A stretch of DNA of 64,000 bases from an uncultured Candidatus Rokubacteria bacterium. Lineage in GTDB: Bacteria > Methylomirabilota > Methylomirabilia > Rokubacteriales > DASRDR01. The DNA lies in assembly GCA_963708025.1 (NCBI GenBank), contig CAVPSB010000049.1, positions 160,001 to 224,000 on the forward strand, written 5' to 3'. Shown one piece after another: positions 6,723-64,000 of the stretch. The position numbers and the translations under genes are program-made. A model generated the notes under the pieces. It was not told where the DNA came from, ran no database searches, and saw nothing but the letters and a program-made list of their open reading frames with translations. Every line of letters starts with the position of its first letter. Position 1 is the stretch's first letter.

Positions 6723-6741
6723 CGCGGCGCTGAAGGGCCCA

Positions 6742-6762: not shown

Positions 6763-6765
6763 TCC

Positions 6766-7685: not shown

Positions 7686-7765
7686 AAATCCTCCGTCCGG
7701 CAGGAGGTGGCTCTTCCTGGATGCGTCCCGCTGACGTCCGTCAGGACGACACGTGGGGCGAAGTC

Positions 7766-7794
7766 ATCGTGAACGTCTGCCGACACGCCGTCAA
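7766..7794 (-). promoter_or_regulatory. Sigma70-like promoter for the small ORF
   Basis: TTGACG-N17-CACGAT on the minus strand. Confidence 0.45.
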
Positions 7795-8467: not shown

Positions 8468-8480
8468 GGTACCTCCCTTT

Positions 8481-8765: not shown

Positions 8766-8771
8766 GGCCTC

Positions 8772-9545: not shown

Positions 9546-9617
9546 GGTGGAGGCTCGCCATCGAGGCTACCAGATGTAGGGGCCGGGGCTCTGCAAGAAT
9601 TTCGCGGACGGGCTCAG

Positions 9618-9705
9618 TTCGGGACCTCCCGCCCACCCGGTCCTTGGACGGCCTTCGGCCTTTGGCTGGGGGGAGGGGGAGCCGGAGAACCCCATTCCTT
9701 CACAG
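9618..9705. repeat. REP-like repeat with micro-hairpin, directly after the patatin stop
   Basis: Near-identical to 58925-58990 (GACGGCCTTCGGCCTTTGGCTGGGGGGAGGGGGAGCCGGAG.ACCCCATTCCTTCAC). Confidence 0.75.
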
Positions 9706-9709
9706 GCCC

Positions 9710-10657: not shown

Positions 10658-10830
10658 GTCTGGGCCACCTGGCATTCTGGTTGGCCGCGAGCGGTCACGG
10701 CCGCGAGGATCCACATTCGCCGGTCGGCGTCGGGTTCCAGGACCCGCACCCGCTCGCCTCGCGGTTATCGCGGAGGGCGGCTTCTCCCACCGGACCCGGG
10801 GGCTGCCGAGCAGGCGCCGGCAAGCCGCTC

Positions 10831-11271
10831 CTACTTCTGTCCAGCCTTCTTCGACAGGGAGGCCTGCAGGTCCTTCTCGATGTTTTTCAGCCACCCCTTG
10901 GGAATCGCGGGCTCGAGCTGACCGGTTTGGGGCGACTTGTAGCGCGAGTCGTTCAGGATCTTGACCAGTGGCCCCTCGACTTTCAGGATGACCTTGGCGT
11001 CGAAGCCGCGGTGCACGAGCGTGCCGACGACCTGCTGCGGCGAGCGTTCCGTCACCGTCCACTTGCGGCCCTCGAGCGTCGACACCAGCGCCGACTCGAC
11101 CTCGGCTTCGGTCAGGCTCGGGGGCAGCGGCACCGACAGCGGCTGGGCGTTGTACTTCGCGGCTTCATCGCCACCCATGACCGTCTGACCCGCGACAGGC
11201 ACCGGCGTCCTCAGCATCGCTCCCACGAGCGCGAGCGCGGCGACCACCCAGACCACGTGTCTCGATCTCAT
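10831..11271 (-). CDS. Hypothetical exported protein
   Basis: GGAGG RBS, signal peptide, folded-looking domain ending GWLKNIEKDL. Confidence 0.75.
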   Translation of the reverse strand: MRSRHVVWVVAALALVGAMLRTPVPVAGQTVMGGDEAAKYNAQPLSVPLPPSLTEAEVESALVSTLEGRKWTVTERSPQQVVGTLVHRGFDAKVILKVEGPLVKILNDSRYKSPQTGQLEPAIPKGWLKNIEKDLQASLSKKAGQK

Positions 11272-11456
11272 CGCATCACCTCCGACGCCCCGCCATCCAG
11301 GCCGCGCCGCGCGCGTCGTCACCGGCCGGTCCAGGCGGGGGGACCGAGCTCGCTTCGACACGCCTCCCCTCCGAGTTCACGGAGTCCTCCGCCCTGCGAC
11401 CACGAGCCAGATCCACGACTCGTTGCCCGTCGAGTCCGCGGGGTGCGGTCATCGGA

Positions 11457-12641
11457 CTACGGCTGACCGAGGACGGCCACGCAGGCGACCGCACCCGGGC
11501 CGCCCAGCGTGTGGGCCAGGCCGGTGCGGGCGCCCTTGACCTGCATCGCGCCGGCCCGCCCCAGGAGCTGGTCAGCGACGTTGTTGATCATCCGCACGCC
11601 GGAGGCGCCGACCGGGTGGCCGCAGGACTTGAGGCCGCCCGAGGTGTTGACCGGGAGGTCGCCGCCGAGCCGGGTCACCCCGGCGGCGGCGAGCCGGTGG
11701 CCCTCCCCCGGCCGGGCGAAGCCGAGGTCCTCGTAGTTGATGATCTCGGTGATCGTGAAGCAGTCGTGGCACTCGGCGACGTCGATCTCTTTCGCCGGCG
11801 CCGTGATCCCGGCCATCCGGTACGCGGCCTGGGCCGCCTCGCGCGTGGCCTTGAACGAGGTGAAGCTCCACGACGGGTCGAACTGGGTGTTCCAGTAGCC
11901 GGCGGCGACGCTGAAGGCGATGCCGCGGATGAGCACGTGCGGCCGGCCGCTCCGGGCCGCCAGGTCCGCCCGGGTCAGGATGCAGGCGGCGGCCCCGTCG
12001 GTCGTGGGGCAGCAGTCGAAGAGCCCGAGCGGCTCGGCGACCTTCGGCGCCTTCGCGTGCTGGTCGGCGGTGATCGGTTTCTGGAAGTGCGCCTTGGGGT
12101 TGAGGCTCCCGTGGTAGTGGTTCTTCACCGCAACCGGCCCCAGCGCCGACTCGTCGACCCCGTACTCCTTGAAGTAGCGGGTCGCCAGGAGGGCGAACAT
12201 CCCGGGCGCCGTGCGCCCCTTGCACAGGACCGGGTGGCCGCGCTCGACGGCCTGGGCGACCAGGCTGCCCCGCGACGGCACCTCACGCATCTTCTCGGCC
12301 CCCACCGCGAGGACGACGTCGTACTCCCCGGACGCGACGGCCAGGGCGGCGTTCCGCACGGCCTCCATGCCGGAGGCGCAGTAGGCGGCGACCCGCGTGA
12401 TCGGGATCGGGGGCAGGTTCAAGGTGTCCCCGACGAACGTCCCGGCGTTCCCCTCGTAGCCGTAGAGGAACGGCTCGTAGGTTCCGAGCCAGCCCGCCTG
12501 GATCGCCCGGGGCTCCACCTGCGCGTCCGCCATGGCGGCGGTGGCCGCCTCGTACACCATGTCCGTGTACGACTGGTGGAAGTTCTCCCCGAACTTGATG
12601 GTGCCGGTGCCGACGATGGCGACCTGGTTGGCGAGCCCCAT
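11457..12641 (-). CDS. Thiolase family (SCP2-type) acetyl-CoA acetyltransferase
   Basis: CASG, GAEKM, KNH, DCCPTTDGAA, ECHDCF, NTSGGLKSCGHPVGASG motifs. Confidence 0.93.
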   Translation of the reverse strand: MGLANQVAIVGTGTIKFGENFHQSYTDMVYEAATAAMADAQVEPRAIQAGWLGTYEPFLYGYEGNAGTFVGDTLNLPPIPITRVAAYCASGMEAVRNAALAVASGEYDVVLAVGAEKMREVPSRGSLVAQAVERGHPVLCKGRTAPGMFALLATRYFKEYGVDESALGPVAVKNHYHGSLNPKAHFQKPITADQHAKAPKVAEPLGLFDCCPTTDGAAACILTRADLAARSGRPHVLIRGIAFSVAAGYWNTQFDPSWSFTSFKATREAAQAAYRMAGITAPAKEIDVAECHDCFTITEIINYEDLGFARPGEGHRLAAAGVTRLGGDLPVNTSGGLKSCGHPVGASGVRMINNVADQLLGRAGAMQVKGARTGLAHTLGGPGAVACVAVLGQP

Positions 12642-40109: not shown

Positions 40110-41200
40110 CTACGGCCCGAACGTCACACAGACCGGCGAACCTAGCTCAGCGGCTTGGCCGGCCGGAGTGAGCTTGCCGGAAGCCGCATCCACCTTGAAG
40201 ACGACGATGTTGCCCGTCTCCTGGTTTGCCGCGAGCAGCCAGCGGCCGGACAGATCGAGAGCGAAGTTGCGCGGCCCTCGACCCTGGGTGCTGGTGTGTT
40301 CGATGAACGTGAGCCGCCCACCAGCGCCAATCGCGAACACCGCGATGCTGTTGTGGCCTCGGTTCGAGCCGTAGAGGACTTTTCCGGTTGGGTGCACAAA
40401 GATCTCCGCGGTCGTGTTCTGCCCGGCAAAACCTTCCGGGAGCGTCGTGATCTCCTGCACTTGCTCGAGAGCCCCGGTGGTGGCGTCGTGCTCGAAGACT
40501 GTGATCGTGTTGAGCATCTCATTGATCACGTAAGCAAAGCCGTCATGGAAAGCGAGATGGCGCGGGCCCGAACCCGGCCGCACCTTGGCGAATCCTTGGA
40601 TCGTTCGGAGTGAGTGTCCCTTTCTGCGCATCGAGCCGGTAGATGAGCACCTGGTCGGTTCCGAGATCGCAAGCGTAGACGAAGCCTCCCTGCGTGTAGA
40701 TGCTGTGAGCGTGGGGACGTTCCTGCCGTCTCGCATTGGGGCCGGAACCCGTGTGCTGCACGAACCCGGTTGCCTCGCCGAGGGTGCCGTCGTCGTGAAT
40801 CGGGAGCGCGGCCACGCTACCGCCGCCGTAGTTCGCGACGACCACGTACTTCCCGGCGCCATCGACGACAAGATGACATGCCTCAGCGCCGCGCGACGCT
40901 TTCGAATTCAGCGGCGCGAGTCCATCGTCCGCCCCGATCGCGTAGGCACTCACGCCGCCGCTTCCAGTCTCGTTGACGGAATAGAGGAATCTCCGGTTGG
41001 GATGAAGCGCAAGAAACGTCGGGTTCTTCGTTTCTGCAACCAGGCCGCCGGCCGTCAGAGCGCCGGTTTCGGAGTTCAGGCGAAACAGGTAAATGCCTTT
41101 GCTGCCCCCCTTCTTCGTGTACGTGCCCACGTAAACCCTGAGATCGGCGGCAGAGACAGAAGTGTCAGACGTGGCGAGCACGGCGGGAGTGATGAACGCG
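40110..41200 (-). CDS. 6-phosphogluconolactonase-like beta-propeller lactonase (frameshift near 40595, start unclear)
   Basis: VYVGTYT, NPTFLALHP, VANYGGGSV, RQERPHAH, DLGTD, GSGPRHLAFH, SNRGHNSIA, PRNF, ANQ motifs. Confidence 0.88.
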
Positions 41201-41361: not shown

Positions 41362-42648
41362 TCATCCGCCGGCGCCGGTCCGTGCTCGCCGGATGGGTGC
41401 GCTCATGGAAAAGCGCAGCGCATGCGCCGCGTACCCGATCGGCCTCGAGAAGTACCGGAGTGCGCCCGCCGAGCTCGGACGCCCGAGCGCGGCGCCGCGG
41501 AGATACTCGCGCGAGGGGAACAGGAGCCACTGGAGCACGCGCGCCTGCGTTCGCCAGCCACCCGGCATCCTGCGGAGCAGGGCGAGAAGAGGCTGGCGCG
41601 ACCCGTTGCGCGCGGCGAAGAGAGCCACGTCGCGCTCCACCGCCGGCGCGCGGTCGAATGCCTCGGCGAGCCGGTCAAGAAAGACGCCGGGGACCCGAGC
41701 GCCGAAGGTGTCGCTCAGATAGCGCAGCATCACGTAGAGCGGGAGCGTGAGTCGCGCGCGCCAGGCGATGTCGAGCACCTCGTGCCAGTCGAGGTCCGAC
41801 TCCCGGTCGATGATGAACCACGCATCGCACACCCAACGCAGGCTCGCCCGACTCGCGGAATACGAGGCATGCCCGCAGACGTGCACCAGGGCGTGCTCAG
41901 GCGAGAGTACGCGCGCCGCCACGCCGGCGATCGTGGTTGCCCGGCTGCGCTCCCATGCCTCGGTCGCGGGAAGGCTGTAGAACGGCAGCGCGAAGAGCTT
42001 GGCGTGCAGCTCGAGCGGAAGTCCCGAGGGATGATCGAGCCGGATGTCCGAGGGGCCGTAGTCTGGCGAGGCCGAGGCCGGCGTGAAACCGGCCGTGCCG
42101 AGCGCCCGCACAGCACGCTCCAGGTCATCGGGCGCGACGAGGAGGTCGATGTCGTGGCAGTGCCGTTGGGCCGGATGGTCGTACACGATCTCGGCCAGTG
42201 CCGCGCCCTTGATCACGAGCACGGACACTCCACTCGCGCCCAGCGCCTCGAGCGCGGCGCGGCAGATTGCGCGATAGGCGTCGTTGCGCATCGCCTCGCG
42301 GGCGTACGAGGTCGTGAGGTATGGACGCAGCGCCGGATCCACCTCCGCCGCATTGCGGCGAAGCGCGGTGAAGAGGAGCGGGAGGATCTGCTTCGCTCCC
42401 CCCGCGTCGTCCGCCACGGCGGCCTTCACATCCGCGTGGTAGCGCTGCCACTGGCGCCACGCGTCCCGCCCCGGCTCGGCAGACAGCAGGCAGGCGCGCA
42501 GCAGCCACGTCTGGTCGGCCCGCGGGAGGACGATGCCGAGCGCGCTCGCCAGCCGCGAGCGGGCGAGCGGCGCCCCAGGCACGCGGAACGCGCCCGGGTG
42601 GCCAAGGGGACTGCCCGACGAGTGCTCCAGGGCGCCGCCCACGCTCAT
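41362..42648 (-). CDS. Nucleotidyltransferase family protein (NTP_transf_5-like)
   Basis: LVIKGAALA...R.CHDIDLLV, LELH, VHVCGH, LRWVCDA motifs. Confidence 0.88.
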   Translation of the reverse strand: MSVGGALEHSSGSPLGHPGAFRVPGAPLARSRLASALGIVLPRADQTWLLRACLLSAEPGRDAWRQWQRYHADVKAAVADDAGGAKQILPLLFTALRRNAAEVDPALRPYLTTSYAREAMRNDAYRAICRAALEALGASGVSVLVIKGAALAEIVYDHPAQRHCHDIDLLVAPDDLERAVRALGTAGFTPASASPDYGPSDIRLDHPSGLPLELHAKLFALPFYSLPATEAWERSRATTIAGVAARVLSPEHALVHVCGHASYSASRASLRWVCDAWFIIDRESDLDWHEVLDIAWRARLTLPLYVMLRYLSDTFGARVPGVFLDRLAEAFDRAPAVERDVALFAARNGSRQPLLALLRRMPGGWRTQARVLQWLLFPSREYLRGAALGRPSSAGALRYFSRPIGYAAHALRFSMSAPIRRARTGAGG

Positions 42649-43388
42649 GTCTTCTTCTCGGCGGAGGAATCGGCAAGCGCCTCGGTACGGCGCCGGTCGA
42701 GCGACGACTTCAGGAATGCCAGCCACTCGTCGCGCGCCTGCGCGGTCTTCCGCCGGGTGAGGTTGGTGTGGTGCATGCGGCGGTACGTGAGCACATCGGA
42801 CAGCACCTCGCTTACCGCACCCAGGGCCGCGGCTCGCATGAACCAGTCGGCGGCGTCGGCAAACCAGAGCTGGGGGTCGAACCCTCCGACGCGGTCGAAC
42901 ACCGCGCGCCGCGCGAGGAGCGTGGTGGTGGCGTAGCCCGGCGGCTGCACGCGCTCGGAGTCCTTGTACTTCTCTTCCTCCTCCTTGAGCTCCGCGATCC
43001 AGAAGAGCTTCACGTACGAGAGACAGTAATCCAGCTCCGGGCGGGCGGCGAAGCGCGCCATCTGTCGCTCCAGCTTTTCCGGATGCCAGAGATCGTCGCC
43101 GTCCAAGAAGGCCACCATCTCTCCGCGCGCCTCACGCAGCCCGGCGTTTCGCGCGGCCGGCGGCCCCATATTGGACTCCCAATAGTAGCGCACCTGCGTC
43201 CCATATTGCTCCACCAGCGCCCTGGTACCGTCGGTCGACCCGTCGTCGATGACGACGATCTCGATCGGGCGATACGTCTGCGCGAGGATGCTGTCGATCG
43301 CTTCCTGGATGTAGCGCTCCCCGTTGTACGTGGGCACGATGCAGCTGATGAGAGGATTCATGGCGCCCTCCGAGCCTGTCGCGCTCAT
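42645..43388 (-). CDS. GT2 family glycosyltransferase
   Basis: ISCIVPTYN, IDDGSTD, ARNAG, FLDGDDLW, YRRMH. Confidence 0.93.
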   Translation of the reverse strand: MSATGSEGAMNPLISCIVPTYNGERYIQEAIDSILAQTYRPIEIVVIDDGSTDGTRALVEQYGTQVRYYWESNMGPPAARNAGLREARGEMVAFLDGDDLWHPEKLERQMARFAARPELDYCLSYVKLFWIAELKEEEEKYKDSERVQPPGYATTTLLARRAVFDRVGGFDPQLWFADAADWFMRAAALGAVSEVLSDVLTYRRMHHTNLTRRKTAQARDEWLAFLKSSLDRRRTEALADSSAEKKT

Positions 43389-44524
43389 GCCAAGCTCCGT
43401 TGCGCGCGCCCGCGCTCGGCGAGCCCGCGGATCAGCTCGTCGTACGCGTCCACGTGCTGCTCCCAGCCAAAGGCAGCTAGGGCTCGCTGCCGAGCGGCCC
43501 TGCCCATCGCCGCGGCGCACCGCGGATCGTCCAGCAGCCTCGCGATGGCTCGTAAGAGGGCGCCGATGTCTTCGGGCTCGATGAGCAGTCCCGTCTCGCC
43601 GTCGACGACCACCTCGGGGAGCCCACCCACGCGTGCGGCGATGACCGGGCGCTCGAGTTGCCCCGCCTGCAGCACGGCGAGGCCGAACCCCTCCTCCACG
43701 CGTGAGGGCATCAGCACCATGGTGGACTGCGCAATCACCGCCGGGATCTGCGCGGGGTTCACCCACCCCAGGAAGTCCACGCGATCGGCGATGCCGAGGG
43801 CGTGCGCCTGACGCTCCAGCCTCGCGCGCTCCTCGCCGTCGCCGGCGATGGTGAGGCGAAGCAGCGGATAGCGCGGCGCGATCCGGGCCAGCGCCGACAG
43901 CGCGAGGTCGAAGCCCTTCTCCTTCGTGGCCAGGCGTCCGACGCAGAGTAGGCGTGGCGCCTCGAGCGGCGGAGGCGTGGGCGCGTGCGCCGTGGCCTCC
44001 AGTCCGTTGAGGATCACGGAGCAGCGGTCAGCGATCTCGGGCGCCTGCCGGCGTATGCGCTCGAGCGTCGCGGCGGAGCACGCCGTCACCCATTCGGCAT
44101 CGCGCAGCAGGCGCCGCAGCACGGAGTTGGGGGTGAGCACGTGGTCGGGGAAGGCGCCATGCAATGTGCACAGCGTGGCCGCCGGGTGCGCGTCGCGTGT
44201 CTCGAGATGCAGAACGGTATCGAAGGTCGCATGGTAAACGTGTACGACCTCCGGCGCAAAGCCGCGCTTGAGCTGCGCCACCGTCCGCCGCAGCTCGAAC
44301 CAGCGCAGCGCGTCGCGGCTCTCCGCCACCTGCAGGAAATCGAAGCGGCGCACCGGAACGCCCTCGAAGCTGGACTCGGCGGCGAGCTCCAGCTCGTCGC
44401 GTCGGGTGACCACCAGAATCTGGTGCCCCCGGTCGCGCAGCGCGGTGACCAGGCGGGCGCCGAGCACCTCGACCCCACCGATGTTCGGCCAGAACGCGTC
44501 ACACCAGAAAAGAATGCGGCTCAC
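43385..44524 (-). CDS. GT4 family glycosyltransferase
   Basis: FWPNIGGVE, VILNG, VGRL..EKG, EGFGLAVLQA, VGGLPEVV. Confidence 0.93.
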   Translation of the reverse strand: MSRILFWCDAFWPNIGGVEVLGARLVTALRDRGHQILVVTRRDELELAAESSFEGVPVRRFDFLQVAESRDALRWFELRRTVAQLKRGFAPEVVHVYHATFDTVLHLETRDAHPAATLCTLHGAFPDHVLTPNSVLRRLLRDAEWVTACSAATLERIRRQAPEIADRCSVILNGLEATAHAPTPPPLEAPRLLCVGRLATKEKGFDLALSALARIAPRYPLLRLTIAGDGEERARLERQAHALGIADRVDFLGWVNPAQIPAVIAQSTMVLMPSRVEEGFGLAVLQAGQLERPVIAARVGGLPEVVVDGETGLLIEPEDIGALLRAIARLLDDPRCAAAMGRAARQRALAAFGWEQHVDAYDELIRGLAERGRAQRSLA

Positions 44525-44800
44525 GGCGCATCGACCGCGAGCGAGTCGAGGAGCTCGTTCACGCGGGCGGGGATGGTCTCGAGGTCGCTCCCCATCTCGA
44601 GCCGATGTGATGGCACCCGCTCCACGAGGCACACGAGCGCGTCGAAGCCTCGTCGTGCCGGCATGAACGGGAGCATGAGCAGCGAGCTGGGCACCAGCGT
44701 GCGGAGCGCTTCGGCGCGCGATACGGGGCTCAGGTGTGCGCCCGCCGCGGCCGACGATCCTGGGAAGGACCAACGCTCGAACCGGCACCATGCTCTCATG
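44521..44800 (-). pseudogene. C-terminal remnant of an HPr-kinase-like (P-loop serine kinase) protein
   Basis: VPVRALVLPRI.. plus LSPVSRAEALRTLVPSSL...LVERVPSHRLEMGSDLETIP match the tail of PqqD-associated kinases; the Walker A region is missing. Confidence 0.6.
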
Positions 44801-44890
44801 GCGACCAAGCGTGTCCGCCGCTGCGCGCTGCGTGCGTATGCGATTCGTGCCCGTCCGCCGAGTGACGAGACTGCACGCCGCGCTTCGCCA

Positions 44891-45349
44891 CTAGAGGCCC
44901 GACCGCGGTGCCGGCGGTGCCGACTCCTGCCATGGGACCTCCTTGAGGCCCGGCATCGGCGGGTCGAGCGCGAGGAGGTCGGCCATGTCGCGGTAGCTGT
45001 TGAGGCGCGGCTCCTGGTACGGCTGCTTCGCGCCAGGCGACGCGCCGGTCGTGGGCGCCGCGGCGTCGCCGACGGCCGGCGTCACCAGCTTCTCGGCGAT
45101 GAGCTCGTCGAGGAGTCGTTGCGCGTCCTCGAGCGCGCGCTGGCCAGTGACCTCGTACCGCGCGACGACGCCGTCCACAATCTCCTCGAAGGGCCGTCCC
45201 TCGGCGACCAGCGACCAGATGAATCCACCCACCTTGTCCATGCTGTAGTACGTGCCGTTGGACAGATTGATGATGACGGCTTCGCCGTCGATCACCTTCG
45301 CGGCGCACTCCTCCTCGTTCGGTACCAGGCGGCTACGCGGTGACAGCAT
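44891..45349 (-). CDS. PqqD/RRE family protein with C-terminal leader-like tail
   Basis: KVIDGEAVIINLSNGTYYSMDKVGGFIW..FEEIVD.VVARYEV..D.QRLLDELIAEKLV, then a linker and YQEPRLNSYRDMADLLALDPP. Confidence 0.9.
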   Translation of the reverse strand: MLSPRSRLVPNEEECAAKVIDGEAVIINLSNGTYYSMDKVGGFIWSLVAEGRPFEEIVDGVVARYEVTGQRALEDAQRLLDELIAEKLVTPAVGDAAAPTTGASPGAKQPYQEPRLNSYRDMADLLALDPPMPGLKEVPWQESAPPAPRSGL

Positions 45350-46463
45350 GTGCATTCTCCTTGGCGACCTGCTGGTACAGAATGTCGAATTGGGAGACGT
45401 GACGCTCGATCGTGAATTCCTCCAGCGCGCGCTGGCGGCCCACGATGCCCATCCGCGCTGCCACGTCGGGATTCTCCAACAAGTACAGTATCGCGTCGGC
45501 GAGTGCACCGGGGTCTTCCTTCTCGACCAGCAGCCCGGTATCCCCGTGCACCACCACCTCCGGCACCCCACCAACGCGACTCGCGATCACGGGACGCGCC
45601 ATCTGGGCGCCCTGCAGTGCCACGAGTCCGAATGCTTCCTTCCACCGGGAGGGCTGCAGCACCATCGTCGAGGCGTTGATGAGCTGCGGAACGTCTGCGG
45701 GGGCAACCCATCCCAGAAAGTCCACGGCATAGGCGATCCCGAGTTCCGCCGCCTGCCGCTCGAGCGCGGCTCGCGCCACTCCATCACCGGCCAGCACCAA
45801 CCGCGCGCGGTGGAACCTCGCGCGCACTTTCGCGAATGCGGTGAGCGCGGTGTCGAACCCCTTCTCTTCCACCAGACGCCCGATGGCCAGAATGCGCGGC
45901 GGATCCAGTGGGAGCGCGCTTGGGCGAAGAGCGGGCACGTCCAGCCCGTTGTGCACGACGGATGAGCGAGGCTGGATCTCGGGCACGAGCTGCCGCGCCT
46001 CGTCGAGCACCGCCATGGAGGGGGCCGTGACCCATGCCGCATCGCGCAACGCGCGGCCGAAGAGCGAGTCGCCCATCGCGGCGGCGGCGGGCACGAAGAC
46101 AGGAAGAGTGACGAGCAGCGGTGCCGGCCACGCGTCGGCGGTCTGATAGTGGAAGAGGAAGCTCGGGTCGGTGATGTTGAGGTGCACGAGATCGGGGCGG
46201 AGCTCTCGCTTGAGCGCGGCCAGTCCCCGCCGTGCCCGCACGATCTCCTCGAGGTCTCTAGTCGCGATCGCGGTCTGGAAGCGAAAGCGATGCACCGGTA
46301 CTCCCTCGTGCTCCGCGAGATCCGGTAGATCGAGATGACCATGCGAGGTGACGACGCACGGCTCGTGGCCGCAGCGACGCAGCCCGCGGAGCAGCTGCGG
46401 CGACCGTACCTCGACGCCGCCGATGTACGGGGCGTACAGTGCCGTCCAGTAGATCACGCGCAT
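45333..46463 (-). CDS. GT4 family glycosyltransferase
   Basis: YAPYIGGVE, VVHNG, IGRLVEEKG, EAFGLVALQG, VGGVPEVV. Confidence 0.93.
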   Translation of the reverse strand: MRVIYWTALYAPYIGGVEVRSPQLLRGLRRCGHEPCVVTSHGHLDLPDLAEHEGVPVHRFRFQTAIATRDLEEIVRARRGLAALKRELRPDLVHLNITDPSFLFHYQTADAWPAPLLVTLPVFVPAAAAMGDSLFGRALRDAAWVTAPSMAVLDEARQLVPEIQPRSSVVHNGLDVPALRPSALPLDPPRILAIGRLVEEKGFDTALTAFAKVRARFHRARLVLAGDGVARAALERQAAELGIAYAVDFLGWVAPADVPQLINASTMVLQPSRWKEAFGLVALQGAQMARPVIASRVGGVPEVVVHGDTGLLVEKEDPGALADAILYLLENPDVAARMGIVGRQRALEEFTIERHVSQFDILYQQVAKENAHAVTA

Positions 46464-46660
46464 GGAGATCCTCCCGCTGCGTCGCTGTCCATGTTCACCA
46501 CTCTCCATTCGCTGGACACGGAGCAGAACCTCCCTGATCAGGAGGATCACCGCCGCCGACGCGGCTGGGCGGTGCCGGCACGAACCGTGCGAGGAGGCGC
46601 TTCTCCCATCGGAAGAGGTGGCCGATGAACTGTCTCGCCGGATTTCTCATGGTCGGGTCG

Positions 46661-47926
46661 TCAGGGCGACCAGAATCGCCACTCCGCCCGGCCCCGCCGC
46701 GTCGTGGACACAGCCAAGCCGGCCAGGTAGAGCCCGCACTGATAGGCGGCCAGCTTGGCGAACTCGATTGGCGCGGACAGGCGGGACCGACGCGAGACCG
46801 AGACACGCAACTCCTCCCAGAGCCAGCGCAGGGGGTCCTGGCTGCCCGTCACCAACTGGCGCAGATATCTGGCCCGTTCCCGTCCGCTCGGTTGGATCCA
46901 CAGGGCGAGGAGGCGTCCAGCCGCGGCTTTCTGAAAGCGCTGGTCGAGGAGAGACGGCTCCGGTCTGAGGACCCCCAGGTGGAAGCAGGTCAAGAGATCT
47001 GGCCGGATGCGCCTGAGCACGTGATGCGGAACATCGGTCTCGAAAATCCTCCGAGTTAGCTGCAGCGACAGGGCCAGCCCGTTCAGGAGCCCGCCCCGAC
47101 GCGCGCTGTCTTCGACCAGGTCCCACCGAAACCGTGGGTTCGCCCTGATGATCCGGTCGATGTCCACGAATCTGACGAGGCGATCGAAGCCGCCCTGGGT
47201 GTTCTGGCTGACCACGTGGAGCAACTGGTGCTCTGGACAGGGAAGGCGGAAGTCCGGTTTGCCGGAGTGGAACTCGGCCCAGGCGAGAAAGTCCTCGGTG
47301 ACGAGCCGCATCGCGGAACCCGGGGCGGTCAGCCCGAAGTGCACCTCCACGATGAAGCCACGAGAGTGTCTCACGCGTACATGAAAATGGTGGTCCATGT
47401 AACCCTGGAGCTGTGCCTCGCTGTACCGATTCTCGTATCCGGAGTCGAGGAGGGCCGAGACACCCCTCTCCAGCTGGTCGGCAGGCAGGAGGAGGTCCAG
47501 GTCGCCGAACCCCCGCTCCACGGGCTCGCCATAGAGAGTCGTACACAGCGCTCCCCCCTTGAGCATGACGGGATCGAGCCCGCGGCGGTGGAGAACGCTG
47601 AGCACGCGATCGCGCTCGACCAGCCACAGGCCGGCGCGGCGGCGCAGGCGCGCGAGGGGGTGGGCCAGCTCGTCGCGCGTCTCGGAGGACAGCATCTCTT
47701 GAACGGCCGGACGCTCCAGCGCCACGAGGACCAGTCCCAGCACGCCATGACGCCGTGCGAAATCCAGGAAACGCTCGCGATCCCCTGACCGAGCGAGGCC
47801 GCGGAGGCCAGCTGCGTTGACACGGGGCTCCGGGACGTGCCGGCACAGCTCGATCACCAGGGACTGGATGGGATCGGCCAGGCCCCAGGGGGGCCGTCTC
47901 CAGCGGGCGGTGAATCCTCTCCTCAT
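46661..47926 (-). CDS. Nucleotidyltransferase family protein (NTP_transf_5-like)
   Basis: ARRHGV, VMLKGGAL...ERGFGDLDLL, VEVHF, RFVDI motifs. Confidence 0.85.
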   Translation of the reverse strand: MRRGFTARWRRPPWGLADPIQSLVIELCRHVPEPRVNAAGLRGLARSGDRERFLDFARRHGVLGLVLVALERPAVQEMLSSETRDELAHPLARLRRRAGLWLVERDRVLSVLHRRGLDPVMLKGGALCTTLYGEPVERGFGDLDLLLPADQLERGVSALLDSGYENRYSEAQLQGYMDHHFHVRVRHSRGFIVEVHFGLTAPGSAMRLVTEDFLAWAEFHSGKPDFRLPCPEHQLLHVVSQNTQGGFDRLVRFVDIDRIIRANPRFRWDLVEDSARRGGLLNGLALSLQLTRRIFETDVPHHVLRRIRPDLLTCFHLGVLRPEPSLLDQRFQKAAAGRLLALWIQPSGRERARYLRQLVTGSQDPLRWLWEELRVSVSRRSRLSAPIEFAKLAAYQCGLYLAGLAVSTTRRGRAEWRFWSP

Positions 47927-48309
47927 GTGCCACATCTGTGCCCATCACGAGGTGGACTGCGCTCCACAAGAGGCGGTCCCCCGATAGTGTGGGGATAATG
48001 CCCGAAGTGTAGCAGACTATGCCAGACTCGGGCCAGCGCGCTGAACTGGCGATCAGCGGAGTCACGCAGTCACCGCAGCGATCCCCGCTGTGAAGCGTTT
48101 TGCACATCCTGTGACGAGGGGTAGTCAGCCGATTCGACCTCATCGGAGACGCCTCGGCGACCCGTTCGACCCCCGCCTGCGCGCGCGGTGACTCGCGGAG
48201 GCTCCGCTCACCGCAACGCTCTTCAGAGCCTCCACGGTTGGCGGCGGCCCGACCGGCAGTCGCCCTCGCGACTCAGCCTCCGCGCCGATTTCGTAATGAT
48301 CGGCGACTT

Positions 48310-48440: not shown

Positions 48441-48870
48441 CTAGAGCTCGTCCACGAAGTCGTGGCTCGCACGCGCGAAGGTCCGTGATCCCACGGCGAG
48501 GAGAGCTCCGGATAGCACCGCGAGTGCCAGAAGAGAAGCACCATCGGGGAACTCGCCGCGGACGAGGATCGCACGATAGGCGTCGAGCAGGTAGAGCATC
48601 GGGTTCAGATGGTACACGGCTTCATGCCGCGCCGGCACGCGACTCGCCTCGTAGAAGACGGGCGTGAGGAACAGGAGAAGCTGGAGGAACCCGGCCAGGA
48701 TGTATTGAGTGTCGCGAAACGTCACATAGAGAGTCGCGGCGAGGTAGGCCAGGCCCAACGTCAGGAAAAACTGGAGCGCGATCGGAACGGGCAGCATGAG
48801 CATCGCCGGCGTCATGGATCGGTCGTCCAGAATGAAGACGAGCAACAGAATGGGAAGCGCCAGCAGGAGT
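48441..48870 (-). pseudogene. wzm: C-terminal half of an ABC-2 polysaccharide exporter permease
   Basis: LYVTFRDTQY, FLTPVFY, LNPM...YRAIL, FVDEL*; the N-terminal half is absent. Confidence 0.8.
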
Positions 48871-48874
48871 TCCG

Positions 48875-49910
48875 GATCTGCGCGTAGGCTCGGGTGTCTG
48901 GGAGATCAGGTGAGGAGCGTAAACGAGCCGCGTGGGTCGGACGCCCTCCGGCGCCAGCGCCACAACGGCTTCCCGCCCGACCGAAGCGGCGTCGAGGACG
49001 TCAAACATGGCCGCGGAGGGCAGGAGCGCACGCCGGGACACGCTGGTGTCGATCGCGCCGGGAATCCGCCTGCCGACGATGACCGCCTGCTGACCGAGAA
49101 AGAGGGCCGAGTCGCGAGCGCCCGATCCGCTGAGCCGCGAATCACCTTCTTCCACCAGCTTGACGGGGGCCGAACATTGAGCCCCGGCAGCGGCGGCGGC
49201 GAGGCAGTCCCTAACCGACCCACCGTCCGCGAAGGGTCGTCCGAGCAGTCCTTCCCGAACCGCGGCCCGGCAGAGCTCGAAGCCGCTGCCCCGGGTGAGC
49301 GCAGCCCGGAGCGGCTGGGCGCCGATGACTCCCTGCTCGGCGGGCAGACGGACAGCTCCGATCGCGACTCCGCCCACCATGGCCACGACGTTGAGCTCCG
49401 AGCCGGCGACGTGGACGCAGGGAAGCTCTCCGGTGACCTCGATCGCCACCCAGTCAGTGTCGACCTTGCGCGTCGGCGCGGGCTCGTCGGTGGCGTTCGG
49501 GTCGTAGAAACGCTCCAGCGGCCAGTGTCAACGGTGCCACAGTTCCTGCAGGAATACCGTCCACCCCACCCGCGCGTGGATGTCCCGCCGTAACATGTCT
49601 TGGCTGTCCGGAGCCGAGGGTGTGAGCCGCGTCGATCCCCTCCAGAGTGATCGACCCTGCGCGTCCTCGTGGACCTCGAGCTCGGAATAGACGGTCCGCT
49701 GAAAGAAGCGCTCCAGGATCTGCCAGCCGAACTCCGCCGCAATCGAGTCGGCCAGAACATACCCGAGCACCGCACCGTCAACGACCGGGAGCTCGCTTCG
49801 TACTCGGGGTAGGTCTGGCCCACGACGGAGGCGAGGGTCTCGCCGATGTACGGGGCCACGTTGTAGGCAGGGATGACGATGCTGACGACGGGACGGCGTG
49901 AGACCCCAGT
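48875..49910 (-). pseudogene. Fragmented large GT2-domain protein
   Basis: VSIVIPAYNVAPYIGETLASVVGQT abruptly joined (~49797) to downstream-domain fragments with stops and frameshifts. Confidence 0.65.
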
Positions 49911-50564
49911 GAACACGAAGCCTACCCTCTTTGCGCTTTCCGAATACCCGGTGGACAAAGGTTCGCGCACAGGCGACCGGCGCGATCGGATTCCCTGGGC
50001 GACCGCGCGGGGAGGTCAGCGCGCGAGCGCCCGCATCTGGGTGAGGAGCAAGGAGCGTGCCCAGTGGCAACATCGCGCCGTTGCCCCAACACTGCGAGGG
50101 GGGCACTGTAAGACATCGATCGGCGGGCGTCAGCGCGCTGATGTGCAGAGCTCGTAACAATTAGGGGTAAACCCTCCATAGCAAGCGCAGCCGCCTGCGT
50201 TCAGCTCGACACGATCACGCGACGTCGGTCGGAGGTTCAACGACGTCTCGCGCCCCGGAGATGCGGGGGTCGGCGCAGTTGTCACACACCACGGCGAGGT
50301 CGAGCTTAGATGGATTGATACGGCTTGATACGGCGGCTGGCGCATGGGGCCCGAGTGGGCTATGCTGGCGGCGCCTGGGCGAGGGATCCCTCGCAGCGAA
50401 TGGGGCGTTCGAGCGGCCTGCGATCCTGCATTGTTGACTCGTTCTCTAGGCGAGCAGACACCTTCCGTCCGTCTCGACGACGATCCGTGGCCGGGCGGGC
50501 TCGGGAGTGCGCTGGGCCCATGAGCCGCGGCCGGCGCCGGTAACCACTCGCCGAGGGAGCGCCG

Positions 50565-56306: not shown

Positions 56307-57820
56307 ATGAGCCAGGTCAGCCCGGCCGACCGCACCACCTTCGTCGAGTTCCAGGCCCGCAACCGCCGCGCCACCTGGAAGCTGACCGCCGCCTGCGCGC
56401 TCGTGGTCGGCGCGGGCGGCTTGCTCGCCGCCTTCGGCTTCATCGTCAACGTGGCGCTCGTCCTGTTCGCGGTGACGTTCGTCCCCGCCCTCGTCTTTTT
56501 CCTGCTGGGCTTCCTCGCCCTGCTGACGCCCGGGACCGGCGTGCTCAGCGATGCCCTGTTCTGGGTCGGGGGCGCGCTCCTGGGGAGCATCGCGGGGACC
56601 GTCCTGCCGTGGCTCGGGGACCACCCGGTGCTGCTCTGGGGCGCCGCCCTCCTGCTCCCGATCGGCGCGTGGCTCGCGGTGCGGTCGGTCTGGCTGGCCG
56701 CGGGCGTCGGCGAGACGCTCCTGGAAATGGGCGCGCGCGCGGCCGCCCCCGGCGACCTGGAGGAACGCCAGCTCGTCAACGTCGTCGAGGAGATGGCGAT
56801 CGCCGCCGGCATCCCGGCGCCTCGGGTGCGCCTCCTCGACGGCGCGGTCGCCAACGCGGCGGCGGCGGGCTGGGACCCGGCGGAGAGCTACGTGGTCGTC
56901 GGGCGGCGGGTGCTCGACGAGTTCGACCGCGACGCGACCCAGGGGCTGCTCGCCCACCTGGTCGGCTCGATCGGCAACGGCGACCTGCGGGGCGCGGCCC
57001 AGATCCACTCGCTCCTCTACGTCCTGGAGCTGATGATCGTGGTGGTGCTCGCTCCGTTCGCCCGCTTCTCGCGCCGGATCGCGCGGGCCTGGCTCGCCTT
57101 CCCGTTCGGGGCCGGCGGGCACGGCGAGGCGCGCGCGGAGCGGGCGCGGGTGCTGATCGGGCTCCTCGCCGAGCACCGCGCCCTCATGCAGGCGAGCGAC
57201 GGCAAGCCGGGGAGCGGCTCGGCCGCGACTACTTCGGCCGCGTGGGCCGCCTCCTGGTCGTCGCGTGCCCGCCCTTCCTCGCGCTCATCCTGTTCGCCCA
57301 GGCGGCGACCGGCTTCCTGCTCCTCTTCGCGAGCGCGCCGATGGCGCTGCTCTGGCGGAGCCGCCGCTACCTGGCCGACGCGACGGCCGTTCAGCTCACG
57401 CGCAACCCCACCGGCCTCTACGGGGCCCTCGCCCGGCTCGCCGAGTGCGGGGCGGTCATCCCCGGCGGTGAGCCGCTGGCCCACCTGTTCGTCGTCGGTC
57501 CCGAGGCCGCCGCGGGCCGCGAGCAGCAATGTCGGGAGCAGGAGATGGCCCGCTGGGTCGAGAAGCGCCAGGCGGAGAGGCAGGGGCGGGCCCCGGGCGC
57601 CTCGTCCCCGGGCACGTGGCTCGACGCCGCTGCGCAAGCGGCCAGCCTGGGCGGCGAGCTCGTGCGGAGCCAGGCAGGCTCTCGCGCCCGCGAGGACGCG
57701 GCCCGCCGCAACACCTTCTGGGAGCGCGAGGGGCTCCTGATGGGGATGCACCCTCCCCTCCACCGGCGGCTCCGGCGGCTCCACCGGATGGGCGCCGTCC
57801 CGAGAGCAGATTCCGGCTGA
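56307..57820 (+). CDS. HtpX/M48-like membrane protein with degenerate zinc motif (frameshift near 57195)
   Basis: NRRATW, ERQLVNVVEEMAIAAG, ANAAA, LLAHLVGSIGNGD, RRYLADATAVQLTRNP.GL, AHLF, HPPL..R. Confidence 0.8.
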
Positions 57821-60955: not shown

Positions 60956-61370
60956 GTGGTCGTCGCCATCATGGGCACGCCGACCGGGGCGGCAGATCAG
61001 GTCGAGCCGCTGGAGAACGGCACACCGGTGACGGCGGTCCCGTTCCGAGTCGGCGCTCCCGCCCGATCTACGAGGTAATCGACCCAGGGGCACGCCGTCT
61101 AGTGCCGTTCCAACTTGCTCCAGCCAATGCTTTCGAGGAATGCGGCAAGTCCGTGCTTCAAGAATCGCTTGCCCATTTTGGCTCATGCAGTTGGAATGGC
61201 ACTAGCAGCCAGCGTCCCGCTCAGCCACCGGGGGCCTTGACTCCTCGCGGGAAACAGTGCTTGATGGCTCGACTCCGGCATCAAGGTCTCCGGCGATGTG
61301 CAAAGATTTTTCCTCCCGGGACAGATGCTGCGGCGACGAGCCGTACCGTGCGAAGGCCCCAGAGGAAACG

Positions 61371-62189
61371 ATGACCAGTCCGCAACACAGAGTGCTCACG
61401 TCGCCTCCGACCGCGGACCTGCGCGCGGTGATAAGCTGCATCGTCCCCGTGTTCAATGGTGAACGCTATCTAGACGAGACGCTGGACAGCATCCTCCAGC
61501 AGACTCACAGCCCACTGGACATCATCGTCGCCGACGACGGCTCAACTGACGGAACAGCGGCTGTCGTTGCCGCCTACGGCGAGCGGGTCACGTATCTGTG
61601 GCAACCGAATGCTGGTGAGACAGCCGCGCGCAACCTCGGGCTTCGCGCCGCGCGTGGCGATTTCGTCGCCTTCCTGGATGCGGACGACCTCTGGCATCCA
61701 GACAAGCTCGCGCGGCAAGTCGCCCGATTCCAGGATCGCCCGGGGCTCGATCTCTGCTTTACTCACTTCGAGAACTTCTGGAGTCCAGAATGTACGGCCG
61801 AAGCAGAATACTACCGGAAGCGCGCATTTTCCCCAGCGTCATCCGCGTACTCGATCTGTACCTTGCTGGCCCGCCGCGCCGCTTTTCAGAAGTTCGGCCA
61901 TTTCGTCGACGACGGTCGTCGGGGGCCCCAGAACCTCATCTGGCTCTTTCACGCTGCTGAACACGGCGCCCGCATCGAGATGTTGACCGACCTCCTGATG
62001 TATCGCCGCCTTCACCGCGAGAACCTCTCCGGGAAGCGGAGCACTGCTCACGACCTCGACACCTTCTTCCCGATCCTGAAGGCGTGGCGCGACTACCAAC
62101 GGCGAGTGCGCGAAGAGACGGGGGTCGCCGCCCCGTTTGGGGCGGGCTTACCAATGACCGAAACCAGGCCGGGAGGTGTCGCATGCTGA
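61371..62189 (+). CDS. GT2 family glycosyltransferase
   Basis: ISCIVPVFN, ADDGSTD, ARNLG, FLDADDLW, YRRLH. Confidence 0.93.
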   Translation: MTSPQHRVLTSPPTADLRAVISCIVPVFNGERYLDETLDSILQQTHSPLDIIVADDGSTDGTAAVVAAYGERVTYLWQPNAGETAARNLGLRAARGDFVAFLDADDLWHPDKLARQVARFQDRPGLDLCFTHFENFWSPECTAEAEYYRKRAFSPASSAYSICTLLARRAAFQKFGHFVDDGRRGPQNLIWLFHAAEHGARIEMLTDLLMYRRLHRENLSGKRSTAHDLDTFFPILKAWRDYQRRVREETGVAAPFGAGLPMTETRPGGVAC

Positions 62190-62632
62190 CGCTGGATCAG
62201 CGCTTTCACCCGTGTGCGCAGGTTGCCTCCAGGGTCTTCGACGGCGAGGCGATCCTGATCAACATGTCCACCGGGATGTACTACAGCATGGTCGATGTCG
62301 GTGGGCGCGTCTGGGAGCTATTGGAGGCGCGACGGAGCCTCGACGAAGTCGTGTTGTCGATCACCGCACGTTACGACGTTTCACGCGAGCAGGCCGAGGC
62401 CGACGTCCAGCGGCTGGCGGCCGACTTGCTCCGCGAGGATCTGATCGCGGCGACCCACGATGGGCCGCCGGCTCGCGCGATCGCGGACACACCGCCGCAA
62501 GCGACACTTCCGTACGAAGCGCCCCGGCTCGACGTGTATCGCGACATGGGAGACTTGCTCGCGCTGGATCCCCCCGCCCCCCAGCTCATGGGCATCGCGT
62601 GGAACGAGCCGGGCGACGAGCCACCTCGTTAG
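62183..62632 (+). CDS. PqqD/RRE family protein with C-terminal leader-like tail
   Basis: GGAGG RBS; RVFDGEAILINMSTGMYYSM..VGGRVW..ARYDV..AEADVQRL, then YEAPRLDVYRDMGDLLALDPP. Confidence 0.9.
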   Translation: MLTLDQRFHPCAQVASRVFDGEAILINMSTGMYYSMVDVGGRVWELLEARRSLDEVVLSITARYDVSREQAEADVQRLAADLLREDLIAATHDGPPARAIADTPPQATLPYEAPRLDVYRDMGDLLALDPPAPQLMGIAWNEPGDEPPR

Positions 62633-62665
62633 CCCAACGGCCAGGTGACGAGAGAATAGTCTGTC

Positions 62666-63406
62666 GTGCTGCCTCTGATCAGCTGCGTCGTTCCCGTCTT
62701 CAACGGCGAGCGGTTTCTGCGCGAGGCGTTGGACAGCATCCTGGCGCAGACCTATCGGCCGGTGGAGATCATTGTCGCCGACGACGGCTCCACGGATGGG
62801 ACGGCCGGTGTGGTGGCGGCCCATGCCGGCGAGATTCGTTACGTGTGGCAACGCAATGCGGGACCAGCGGCGGCTCGCAACCTGGGGTTGAGCGTCGCGC
62901 AAGGCGAGTTTGTCGCGTTTCTCGACGCCGACGACCTCTGGCATCGGGAGAAACTCGCGCGGCAGATGGCCTCCTTTCAGGCGCGATCCGAGCTCGATCT
63001 CTGCGTCACCCACATACAGAACTTTTGGGTCCCAGAGCTGCGCCGGGAGGCGATTCGGTTGCAGCATGATCGGCTGATGCAAGCGTTGCCCGGGTACCTG
63101 ACATCGACGCTTCTCGCCCGTCGAGCCGTATTCGAATCGGCCGGCGGATTCGATGTCGCCTTGCCGCATGCGGGAGACACCGAGTGGTTCTTGCGCGCGG
63201 CTGAACGCGGCGCCGTCATGGAGTTGTTACCCGATCTGTTGACCTATCGCCGATTGCACCAGACCAATCGGAGCCGCCTGTCGGCGACTGCGAGCTGGGA
63301 AGAGTACCTGCTGATCGTGAAAGCGTCGCTGGACCGGCGGCGTCGCCTCAACAGGGCCGCCGCGCCGTACGCATTCCCGGGCGTCAACGAGCCGAGGAAC
63401 ACCTAG
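62666..63406 (+). CDS. GT2 family glycosyltransferase
   Basis: ISCVVPVFN, ADDGSTD, FLDADDLW, DTEWF, YRRLH. Confidence 0.93.
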   Translation: MLPLISCVVPVFNGERFLREALDSILAQTYRPVEIIVADDGSTDGTAGVVAAHAGEIRYVWQRNAGPAAARNLGLSVAQGEFVAFLDADDLWHREKLARQMASFQARSELDLCVTHIQNFWVPELRREAIRLQHDRLMQALPGYLTSTLLARRAVFESAGGFDVALPHAGDTEWFLRAAERGAVMELLPDLLTYRRLHQTNRSRLSATASWEEYLLIVKASLDRRRRLNRAAAPYAFPGVNEPRNT

Positions 63407-63475
63407 GCGAGCCACCATTGACCTATGGGCCCGTCGCCACCCGTGCTCGAGGCGGGGGAGGCAATCGGCTGAACG

Positions 63476-64000
63476 ATGCGAGTGTTGTACTGGTCCGATC
63501 TTTTTTCGCCGTACGTTGGGGGCGCTGAAGTGCTGAGCGCCGATCTCATCGAAGCGTTGGGGCAGCGCGGCATCGAAGCGCTCGTGCTTACCCGGCAGGA
63601 CCCCGCCGATCTACCCAGCGAGGCACGATTCAAGGGAATATCGGTGTGTCGTATCCCGTTCCTCACGGCGTTCGCGGACGGCAACATCGACCGACTCCTC
63701 GCGGCACGCCACGAGGTCAGCAGGCTCAAGCGGAGCTTTGCGCCCGACCTCATCCACGTCATCTCTTTCGGCGCCAGCGCCCTGTTTCACCTCGACACCG
63801 CGACCGCGTACCCGGCACCACTGTTGGTCACGTTGCACGGCGAGAGATCCCTAGAGGTTACGAGCGGCGACACCCTCCTGCAGAAGACCCTGCGCTCGGC
63901 CGATTGGGTGACCGGCGTCTCGGCCGCTGTCCTTGCCCAAGCACGTGAGCTGGTGCCGGAGATCCTTCCGCGCTCGTCCGTCATCTGCAACGCTCGCAAA
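63476..64000 (+). CDS. GT4 family glycosyltransferase (runs off window)
   Basis: MRVLYWSDLFSPYVGGAEV...LKRSFAPDLIH...LLVTLHG...SVICN; paralog of 43385-44524 and 45333-46463. Confidence 0.88.
   Translation, partial: MRVLYWSDLFSPYVGGAEVLSADLIEALGQRGIEALVLTRQDPADLPSEARFKGISVCRIPFLTAFADGNIDRLLAARHEVSRLKRSFAPDLIHVISFGASALFHLDTATAYPAPLLVTLHGERSLEVTSGDTLLQKTLRSADWVTGVSAAVLAQARELVPEILPRSSVICNARK

Follow-up and report, generated by a model that had tools for sequence, protein, structure and literature searches.

The 64,000-nt stretch of DNA analysed here (the window) is part of contig CAVPSB010000049.1 (positions 160,001 to 224,000, forward strand) of an uncultured Candidatus Rokubacteria bacterium (GCA_963708025.1), the assembly of which comprises 8.17 Mb in 49 contigs. 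On its minus strand, at 41362-47935, the window carries a cassette of seven genes or gene remains. At the centre of interest is a PqqD protein that consists of a RiPP recognition element (RRE; RiPP, a peptide made on the ribosome and modified after translation) and a conserved C-terminal tail, here named PqqDt. Genes were called by Pfam profile search, with our own hidden Markov models (HMMs) and with a check of start codons, and coordinates are positions within the window unless another locus or contig is named. The G+C content of the window is approximately 70 %, and by identity its proteins are nearest to those of Gemmatimonadaceae metagenome-assembled genomes (MAGs). The features of the cassette are given below, with identities to the corresponding genes of the closest relative, locus L001.

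46661-47935, minus strand: upstream NTP_transf_5 (PF14907) nucleotidyltransferase; Pfam E 5.5e-43, own HMM at 46790-47881 with E 1.9e-62; start codon uncertain; 42 % identical to the upstream nucleotidyltransferase of L001
45333-46463, minus strand: glycosyltransferase GT4a; Pfam Glycos_transf_1 (3.1e-39) and Glyco_transf_4, HMM at 45348-46466; ATG at 46463
44891-45349, minus strand: PqqDt (P0002), a PqqD/RRE protein of 152 aa that ends in a conserved tail; 53.9 bits against PF05402 (cut-off 23.4)
45068-45334, minus strand: RRE (winged-helix) domain, PqqDt residues 6-94; structural match to TbiB1
44993-45019, minus strand: proximal tail motif Y111-Q-E-P-R-L-N-S-Y119 (YxxPxLxxY), proposed docking element for the protein's own RRE
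44930-44989, minus strand: distal tail motif D121-W140 (DMxDLLALDPPxPGLxxxPW), for which display to partner enzymes is proposed
44894-44929, minus strand: variable C-terminal end, residues 141-152; Ser/Glu/Pro/Gly-rich across the family (composition and length statistics)
44536-44799, minus strand: remnant of an HprK-like kinase gene, the last ~88 codons, P-loop gone, 1-nt insertion near 44745; tblastn E 4e-26
43385-44524, minus strand: glycosyltransferase GT4b, GTG start; Pfam; 76 % identical to GT4b of L001 over residues 6-398
42645-43388, minus strand: GT2 glycosyltransferase; Pfam Glycos_transf_2 1.1e-35; 83 % identical to GT2 of L001
41362-42648, minus strand: downstream NTP_transf_5 nucleotidyltransferase; Pfam 3.8e-46; 72 % identical to the nucleotidyltransferase of L001 over residues 1-406

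Besides the kinase, all six cassette genes are intact. The stop of GT4a and the start of PqqDt overlap by 17 nt, and ATGA junctions join GT4b to GT2 and GT2 to the downstream NTP_transf_5 gene. Every gene that the initial annotation had read into this co-oriented and overlapping run (nucleotidyltransferase, GT4, PqqD, kinase remnant, GT4, GT2, nucleotidyltransferase) was found on the minus strand by Pfam and our own HMMs. The PqqD protein, put there at about 150 aa, translates to 152 aa with the tail exactly as quoted, and the leader-like YxxPxL motif is indeed part of a conserved C-terminal tail on the RRE protein.

The conserved tail of PqqDt and its predicted docking

PqqDt belongs to a large family. 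A word-indexed search with the protein returned 867 proteins at E<=0.001, nearly all of 140-160 aa, and a full HMMER scan returned 982 cluster representatives at E<=1e-10. PF05402 matches residues 98-164 of the long ORF, corresponding to 23-89 of P0002, and exceeds the curated cut-off, and the ESM Atlas clusters for the homologue P0010 are labelled 'PqqD family protein' only. A genome scan gave 152 relatives among 181 pattern matches, and 78 distinct loci were retained. The record titles of these loci name Gemmatimonadota, delta-, gamma- and alphaproteobacteria, Acidobacteriota, Bacteroidetes, Ignavibacteriales, Nitrospirota, Chloroflexota, Planctomycetes, Verrucomicrobia, Abditibacteriota, Methylomirabilis, Rokubacteria, Binatia, Calditrichia and a Solirubrobacteraceae MAG.

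Conservation was computed on an alignment of 133 homologues with a mean column identity of 39 %. Residues conserved in at least 90 % of sequences are D21, E23, G32, Y34, Y35, S36, G41, W45, D75 and L83 in the RRE, and Y111, P114, L116, D121, M122, A127, L128, D129, P130, P131 and P133 in the tail. With the pattern YxxPxLxxYxDMxDLLALDPPxP, the tail is the best-conserved part of the family, so that its conservation, on which the earlier proposal had been made to depend, is borne out. Judged by the aligned sequences, it is not a chance motif.

The structure of PqqDt was modelled with AlphaFold2 from the 133-row alignment (mean pLDDT, the per-residue confidence score, 88.6; pTM 0.76). Strands at residues 15-20, 23-28 and 34-37 and helices at 39-49, 54-64 and 69-85 form a three-strand, three-helix winged-helix fold like that of solved RREs; further strands at 7-10 and 89-92 agree with the description in PMC13381572, and there is a strand at 117-119 directly after L116. 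When residues 6-94 were compared with TbiB1 (5v1v_A, VIA-align), Z was 12.8 with a root-mean-square deviation of 2.4 Å over 88 residues; a second leader-bound TbiB1 match had Z 12.5 and 1.4 Å over 84 residues, and TfuB1 had Z 11.0. Foldseek TM-target values were 0.88-0.90, and a profile search of the PDB returned TbiB1 (8.9e-21), PbaB1 (7.8e-15) and LppB (9x8z; 8.5e-10), the last from the linear polyphosphorylated peptide (LPP) system.

In LppB, D70 hydrogen-bonds the leader Tyr and F74 divides two pockets, and in the crystal structure of PbaB1 three leader residues past the motif Leu extend the RRE sheet (PMC13381572). The HMMER alignment places LppB D70 on PqqDt D75, which is at least 90 % conserved, and F74 on L79. 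The model, of the kind that the initial annotation had proposed as a check on docking, agrees with a tail lying on the RRE, with a mean pLDDT of 97 for residues 111-120, compared with 88 for 101-110, 66 for 121-130 and 61 for 131-140. It is therefore well supported, at the level of the model, that the RRE would bind its own tail by the proximal half (YxxPxLxxY) in the leader cleft, and such a protein would be permanently self-loaded. The tandem proteins P0124, P0127 and P0129, in which YxxPx[L/I]xx[Y/H] stands alone after the first RRE and the full tail follows the second, provide independent support for self-docking.

Other arrangements were seen in the family. P0124, P0127, P0129 and P0228 have two or three RRE repeats, with the full tail on the last and a short YxxPxL-like motif on the earlier ones. 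Natural fusions join GT4 to PqqDt (P0273, 511 aa) and GT2 to the kinase (L036:7365-9242, 625 aa); apparent PqqDt-kinase fusions in L032, L044 and L060 were rejected as artefacts of out-of-frame open reading frames (ORFs). In L005 (a 'delta proteobacterium' MAG, 18.6 kb) there are three PqqDt copies (1974-2399, 7415-7840 and 10001-10426), each 51.4 % identical to the query, with many GT2 and GT4 genes; the kinase and NTP_transf_5 are absent from this locus.

Gene neighbourhood, kinase remnant and other copies

The neighbours of PqqDt were tabulated in two passes. In the first, naive ORF calls from the 78 loci were clustered and Pfam was run on the cluster representatives; the common neighbours were GT2 (66 loci), NTP_transf_5 (63 loci, 98 copies), an HprK-like cluster (61 loci) and GT4 (40 loci). 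In the second, HMMs were run on six-frame translations, and the 49 loci that are flanked on each side by 6 kb or more were kept. Within 6 kb of PqqDt, 40 of these loci have a full kinase, 44 have NTP_transf_5, all 49 have GT2 and 33 have GT4, and the kinase, NTP_transf_5 and GT2 are jointly present in 38. Linkage of the homologues to kinase, nucleotidyltransferase and glycosyltransferase genes, which had been predicted from the single copy, is therefore found in most of the well-flanked loci.

The cassette is usually inside polysaccharide-type loci, and ABC exporters, either fused MsbA-like or Wzm/Wzt, are frequent near it. Among the 33 of 39 other co-oriented in-cassette ORFs that were scanned are sugar-modifying enzymes, sulfotransferases, radical SAM proteins and similar, and no signal peptidase, lasso cyclase or B2 protease. 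No member of a signal-peptidase family was found among the window ORFs, the common neighbour clusters or these 33 ORFs, and no B2 transglutaminase-like leader peptidase among the window ORFs. An AsnB-type gene with a strong GATase domain is present at 4 of the 78 related loci.

No candidate precursor ORF was found in the upstream gaps of five low-GC cassettes, and no conserved small ORF in or beside the cassettes. A search for a stand-alone tail peptide gave two short matches, both of which look like fragments of full-length genes and were rejected. These results bear on the idea of an autoinhibited RRE, in which the tail would stand in for a leader until a genuine precursor, encoded elsewhere, takes its place. 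A leader-like motif in cis is what this idea would expect, but besides the missing small ORF, the distal tail is conserved beyond what an inhibitory plug needs and each tandem RRE keeps its own proximal motif, and the idea is considered very unlikely.

In L001 a kinase of 390 aa, with a weak match to Hpr_kinase_C, adjoins the PqqD gene. The window remnant aligns only to residues 301-388 of this HprK-like kinase (63 % identity, tblastn E 4e-26) and covers positions 290-358 of 360 in the kinase HMM. On metagenome contig L088, where PqqDt is 84 % identical to that of the window, the whole kinase is kept (residues 42-387 match), and positions ~491-1272 of this contig (~780 nt) have no counterpart in the window; the P-loop (consensus GxGGSGKST in 48 kinases) is within the missing stretch. 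In addition, contigs of three public runs have one base fewer at 44745 than the window. The relatives keep the kinase gene; the window copy is damaged twice, by a deletion and by a 1-nt indel. Contigs from runs X1 and X2 diverge from the window at 44785 and 44796, and read on the other strand they give kinase residues (...LAEVFP.RM...). The sole RNA-library contig (X20, 44147-44426) does not show transcription.

The kinase in the window is thus a remnant, as first described, and the window copy cannot phosphorylate with its own kinase. It may depend on one of three intact paralogous HprK-like kinases elsewhere in the genome, or it may be decaying. Broken kinases were also seen elsewhere (L003, L024, L067 and L073).

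A second cassette and the remaining features of the window that touch on the argument are as follows.

61257-64000, plus strand, continuing to G000:C49:225691: second, paralogous cassette (Pfam, HMMs)
61257-62189, plus strand: GT2 of the second cassette
62183-62632, plus strand: PqqDt2
62666-63406, plus strand: GT2 of the second cassette
from 63473, plus strand: GT4 of the second cassette
48450-48806, minus strand: remnant of Wzm (ABC-2 permease), C-terminal part only; Pfam ABC2_membrane profile positions 132-210 of 211
49797-49895, minus strand: GT2 stub, first ~33 profile positions only; own GT2 HMM positions 14-46 of 256, Pfam match to residues 30-58 only
1492-2439, outside the cassette: S49 peptidase-family ORF
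56307-57740, outside the cassette: M48-like peptidase-family ORF

The tail of PqqDt2 reads ...YEAPRLDVYRDMGDLLALDPPAPQLMGIAWNEPGDEPPR, and the intact kinase of the second cassette is at G000:C49:224699-225691, ~700 nt past the window end; no NTP_transf_5 was found in an 18-kb stretch around this cassette. The window cassette, with two nucleotidyltransferases and no kinase, and its neighbour 13 kb away, with a kinase and no nucleotidyltransferase nearby, could, from their gene content, work together, and the pair is a natural test of whether the parts function in trans. Elsewhere in the assembly, contig C31 has a complete cassette, made up of PqqDt, kinase, GT2, three GT4 genes and NTP_transf_5, and contig C18 has a kinase with two GT2 genes, PqqDt being absent. 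A different orphan set is found at L105 (G000:C25:9000-28999), where at ~6200-11800 on the minus strand a lasso-type PqqD of 106 aa that lacks the tail accompanies a GMC oxidoreductase, an HprK-related kinase and NTP_transf_5, with no cyclase seen.

Remnants of both wzm and wzt had been reported upstream of the cassette. That of Wzm is present, aligning only to residues 176-294 of the 296-residue Wzm of L001 (tblastn), its C-terminal 40 %, whereas no Wzt remnant was found near the cassette at E<=5. Both genes are intact in L001 and are labelled on the gene maps of L007 and L073; the intact Wzm permease and Wzt ATPase beside glycosyltransferase genes that mark ABC-transporter-dependent glycan export are not present in the window. 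The further statement that the window has no cyclase, peptidase or radical SAM gene holds for an Asn-synthase-type cyclase and the radical SAM family, neither of which was found among the window ORFs scanned, but not for peptidases, of which the S49 and M48-like ORFs are present, neither of them in the cassette.

Between the Wzm remnant and the GT2 stub are long ORFs at 48796-49593 (plus strand) and 48906-49970 (minus strand), with no Pfam family besides the stub. A 7-bladed lactonase extends over two overlapping frames at 40110-41181 on the minus strand (Pfam profile positions 2-193 and 178-344), and is either a frameshifted gene or the product of an assembly indel. Far from the cassette, a Sir2-family gene (8772-9545) and one for a patatin-like phospholipase (9710-11062) have a resolvase (6818-7393) nearby, an arrangement reminiscent of defence islands.

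The Wzm remnant, GT2 stub and split lactonase around the cassette fit local decay or assembly indels. Together with the two lesions in the kinase and the broken kinases at four other loci, they are the grounds for regarding the window cassette as a relic, non-functional and decaying with its neighbours after the kinase deletion. Yet the six other genes are intact and translationally coupled, and the paralogous cassette 13 kb away has a kinase but no NTP_transf_5 in its 18-kb surroundings, so that the two could complement each other. Pairwise ratios of non-synonymous to synonymous substitution rates (dN/dS) for PqqDt, GT4b, GT2 and the downstream NTP_transf_5 are 0.13-0.38, a figure that includes the time before the deletion, and are no higher than between relatives with intact kinases. 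On this evidence it is rather unlikely that the cassette is a relic.

Possible roles of the tail

The explanation that accounts best for these data is that the window holds a copy of a widespread cassette related to lasso-tailoring and LPP machinery, with a self-loaded RRE, and this is probably correct. At its core the cassette has PqqDt together with an HprK-like P-loop kinase, GT2/GT4 glycosyltransferases and NTP_transf_5 nucleotidyltransferases, of which there are one or two. The RRE would be loaded by the YxxPxLxxY of its own tail in the way that lasso and LPP RREs bind [Y/W]xxPx[L/V] of a separate precursor (PMC13381572). The distal half, DMxDLLALDPPxPGLxxxPW, would not be packed on the RRE and may instead be displayed to the cassette enzymes. 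This distal motif is the most conserved stretch of the family, yet its pLDDT is only 61-66 in the monomer model; the authors of the LPP study suggest that the part of the leader not touching the RRE may serve the modifying enzymes (PMC13381572).

A number of observations weigh against this explanation or parts of it. Placement of the tail in the cleft is based on pLDDT, DSSP and homology to solved structures rather than on the coordinates, and AlphaFold2 cannot distinguish intramolecular from intermolecular binding of the tail. In eight of the 49 well-flanked loci no complete kinase lies within 10 kb, and L003 and L073, both among these eight, have kinase fragments only; in L024 a C-terminal remnant is next to a full kinase. 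A kinase is therefore not strictly required beside PqqDt. No contig bridging the deletion junction (44785-44816) was found in runs X1, X2, X5 and X20, so the deletion is without read-level confirmation. None of the hydroxyl residues of the tail is conserved. Ser and Thr are missing after LDPP from 32 of 251 family members, and of 250 members 34 end in Ser, about what the 14.5 % share of Ser in the composition of the region would give. The conserved motif of LPP includes the acceptor Ser, in the place of which LppK took neither Thr nor Tyr (PMC13381572), and this weakens the view of the tail as a kinase substrate.

With regard to what is done at the tail, it is a tentative proposal that its variable end is the acceptor of a phosphate-linked sugar decoration, PqqDt being an uncleaved, RRE-fused LPP-like precursor. 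The kinase would phosphorylate Ser or Thr in the variable end, and NTP_transf_5 and the glycosyltransferases would add a phosphate-linked glycan, giving a fused precursor of the LPP/pseudomycoidin type that is never cleaved; in this detailed form, too, the proposal is possible without being expected. The kinase of lasso and LPP systems acts on the peptide that their RRE binds, and a nucleotidyltransferase adds hexose to the phosphate (PMC8498205; PMC13381572). The tail is the sole RRE ligand found, it resembles leader plus core in that a variable end comes after a conserved recognition part, this end is Ser/Glu/Pro/Gly-rich with Ser or Thr after LDPP in 219 of 251 family members, and the natural fusion of GT4 to PqqDt is also in keeping with a precursor. 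Counting against it, besides the lack of a conserved acceptor and of enrichment for a C-terminal Ser, are ends of only 2-8 residues in some members and the absence of a hydroxyl residue from the best-conserved stretch. The acceptor Ser of LppA is 18 residues after the Tyr, and the same position in PqqDt is the conserved Asp129, which may be chance; by analogy, Asp129 might mimic a phosphate.

Alternatively, the distal motif could be a mere docking handle by which the enzymes are brought together on some other substrate, which is somewhat doubtful. The fullest version of this alternative, a pure scaffold, appears rather improbable: the self-occupied RRE would be a structural adaptor and the distal motif would recruit the kinase, NTP_transf_5 and glycosyltransferases onto a lipid-linked or other glycan, which would then be exported by Wzm/Wzt or an MsbA-like pump, with no peptide modified. 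The sugar-modifying genes and ABC exporters around the cassettes would suit a scaffold, as would the distal motif, which looks like a docking motif and has no acceptor residue, and the existence of a GT2-kinase fusion. A PW sub-motif in the tail also accompanies GT4, which is present in 25 and absent in 2 of the loci where the tail has PW, and present in 8 and absent in 14 where it does not (Fisher p 3.9e-5). However, the supported branches of the tree hold a single independent pair, so that the link is not shown to be independent of descent and is therefore a hint rather than a result. Furthermore, no initiating phosphoglycosyltransferase was found among the common neighbour clusters, and we know of no RRE that functions without a peptide substrate.

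A further reading, in which PqqDt would serve as the protein that primes or carries a glycoconjugate of a new kind, its self-loaded RRE holding out the tail on or via which the kinase, NTP_transf_5 and glycosyltransferases build a phosphate-linked glycan, is likewise not the likely one. It is unlikely that the tail is neither an acceptor end nor a docking handle but something else.

RREs are taken to read precursor peptides that are separate from them, and peptide natural products are sought through them in genome mining. If PqqDt is indeed self-loaded, there is a large family whose reader brings along its own ligand and has no precursor, cyclase or peptidase; this would change the reading of 'orphan RRE' matches, and LPP chemistry (phosphate and sugar on a peptide) would extend from Bacillota to many soil phyla and be tied more closely to polysaccharide loci. 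Were PqqDt a carrier, the cassette would unite peptide modification with polysaccharide synthesis in more than 10 bacterial phyla, needing neither a precursor gene nor a peptidase. The family poses a testable question, namely the substrate of the HprK-like kinase and of the uncharacterised PF14907 nucleotidyltransferase.

Comparison with described systems

The closest described system is that of the LPP clusters (lppA-K-B-S-D-N) of Bacillota (Popov et al., Nat Commun 2026; PMC13381572), which are inside capsule loci and are stated to be restricted to Bacillota. Both systems have a discrete lasso-type RRE, a kinase of the HprK-like type, an uncharacterised NTP transferase and no lasso cyclase, and both are in glycosyltransferase-rich polysaccharide loci; both also have an RRE ligand with YxxPx[L/V], the later part of which is off the RRE and is thought to serve the enzymes (PMC13381572). 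Of the HprK-like kinase, only the P-loop-less remnant is present in the window. The LPP clusters differ in having an SpI-type (SipW-like) signal peptidase, of which there is none in the PqqDt cassette, and a separate precursor gene, whereas here the motif is fused to the C-terminus of the RRE (PMC13381572). The two motifs agree in their first six positions only; after YxxPxL the sequence is DMxDLLALDPP here and VLxHQxIxFETxxS there, with no conserved acceptor Ser in PqqDt (PMC13381572). The NTP transferase of LPP is LppN, for which the main text of the paper names no Pfam family, compared with two PF14907 genes here (PMC13381572). PqqDt occurs in Gemmatimonadota, Proteobacteria, Acidobacteriota, Bacteroidota and other phyla, unlike LPP in Bacillota only (PMC13381572), and the sequence of its RRE is nearer to those of TbiB1 and PbaB1 than to that of LppB. 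Lacking the peptidase, the separate precursor and the acceptor Ser, the PqqDt cassette is therefore not counted as a member of the LPP clusters.

In lasso tailoring, homologues of HPr kinase put a phosphate on the C-terminal Ser of the precursor, and in pseudomycoidin a nucleotidyltransferase adds hexose to that phosphate (PMC8498205). The paeninodin and pseudomycoidin systems share with the cassette a B1-like RRE, an HprK-like kinase, a nucleotidyltransferase and the same RRE-binding motif, but here there is no lasso cyclase, B2 protease or precursor gene, and the C-terminal Ser that is the kinase target there is not conserved (PMC8498205).

The HPr-rel-A system of NCBIfam (TIGR04352, HprK-related kinase A) also has a PqqD-family protein beside an HprK-related kinase of unknown role. 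However, the kinases of the relatives score 47.8 (L001) and 36.1 bits against a TIGR04352 cut-off of 200, and PqqDt has no match at E<=0.01 to TIGR04353, which we take to be the PqqD member of that system.

The system had been put forward as undescribed. This stands for the fused form, on which no paper was found, including in searches on PF14907, HprK-related kinase and PqqD in Gemmatimonadota, and a search by terms of a 2025 RRE survey found no passage on it; it does not stand for the system as a whole, since the analogous LPP system was published in 2026 (PMC13381572).

In structure, the nearest parallels are the RRE-leader complexes of TbiB1, TfuB1 and PbaB1 (PDB 5v1v, 5v1u, 6jx3 and 9x90). 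PqqDt shares their fold (Z 12.8, 12.5 and 11.0) and is 33-36 % identical to TbiB1, and the Asp that holds the leader Tyr is conserved. In these complexes the leader is a separate chain, whereas in PqqDt the tail is connected to the RRE by a Pro/Ala/Gly-rich linker of ~16 residues (95-110), the length of which is variable.

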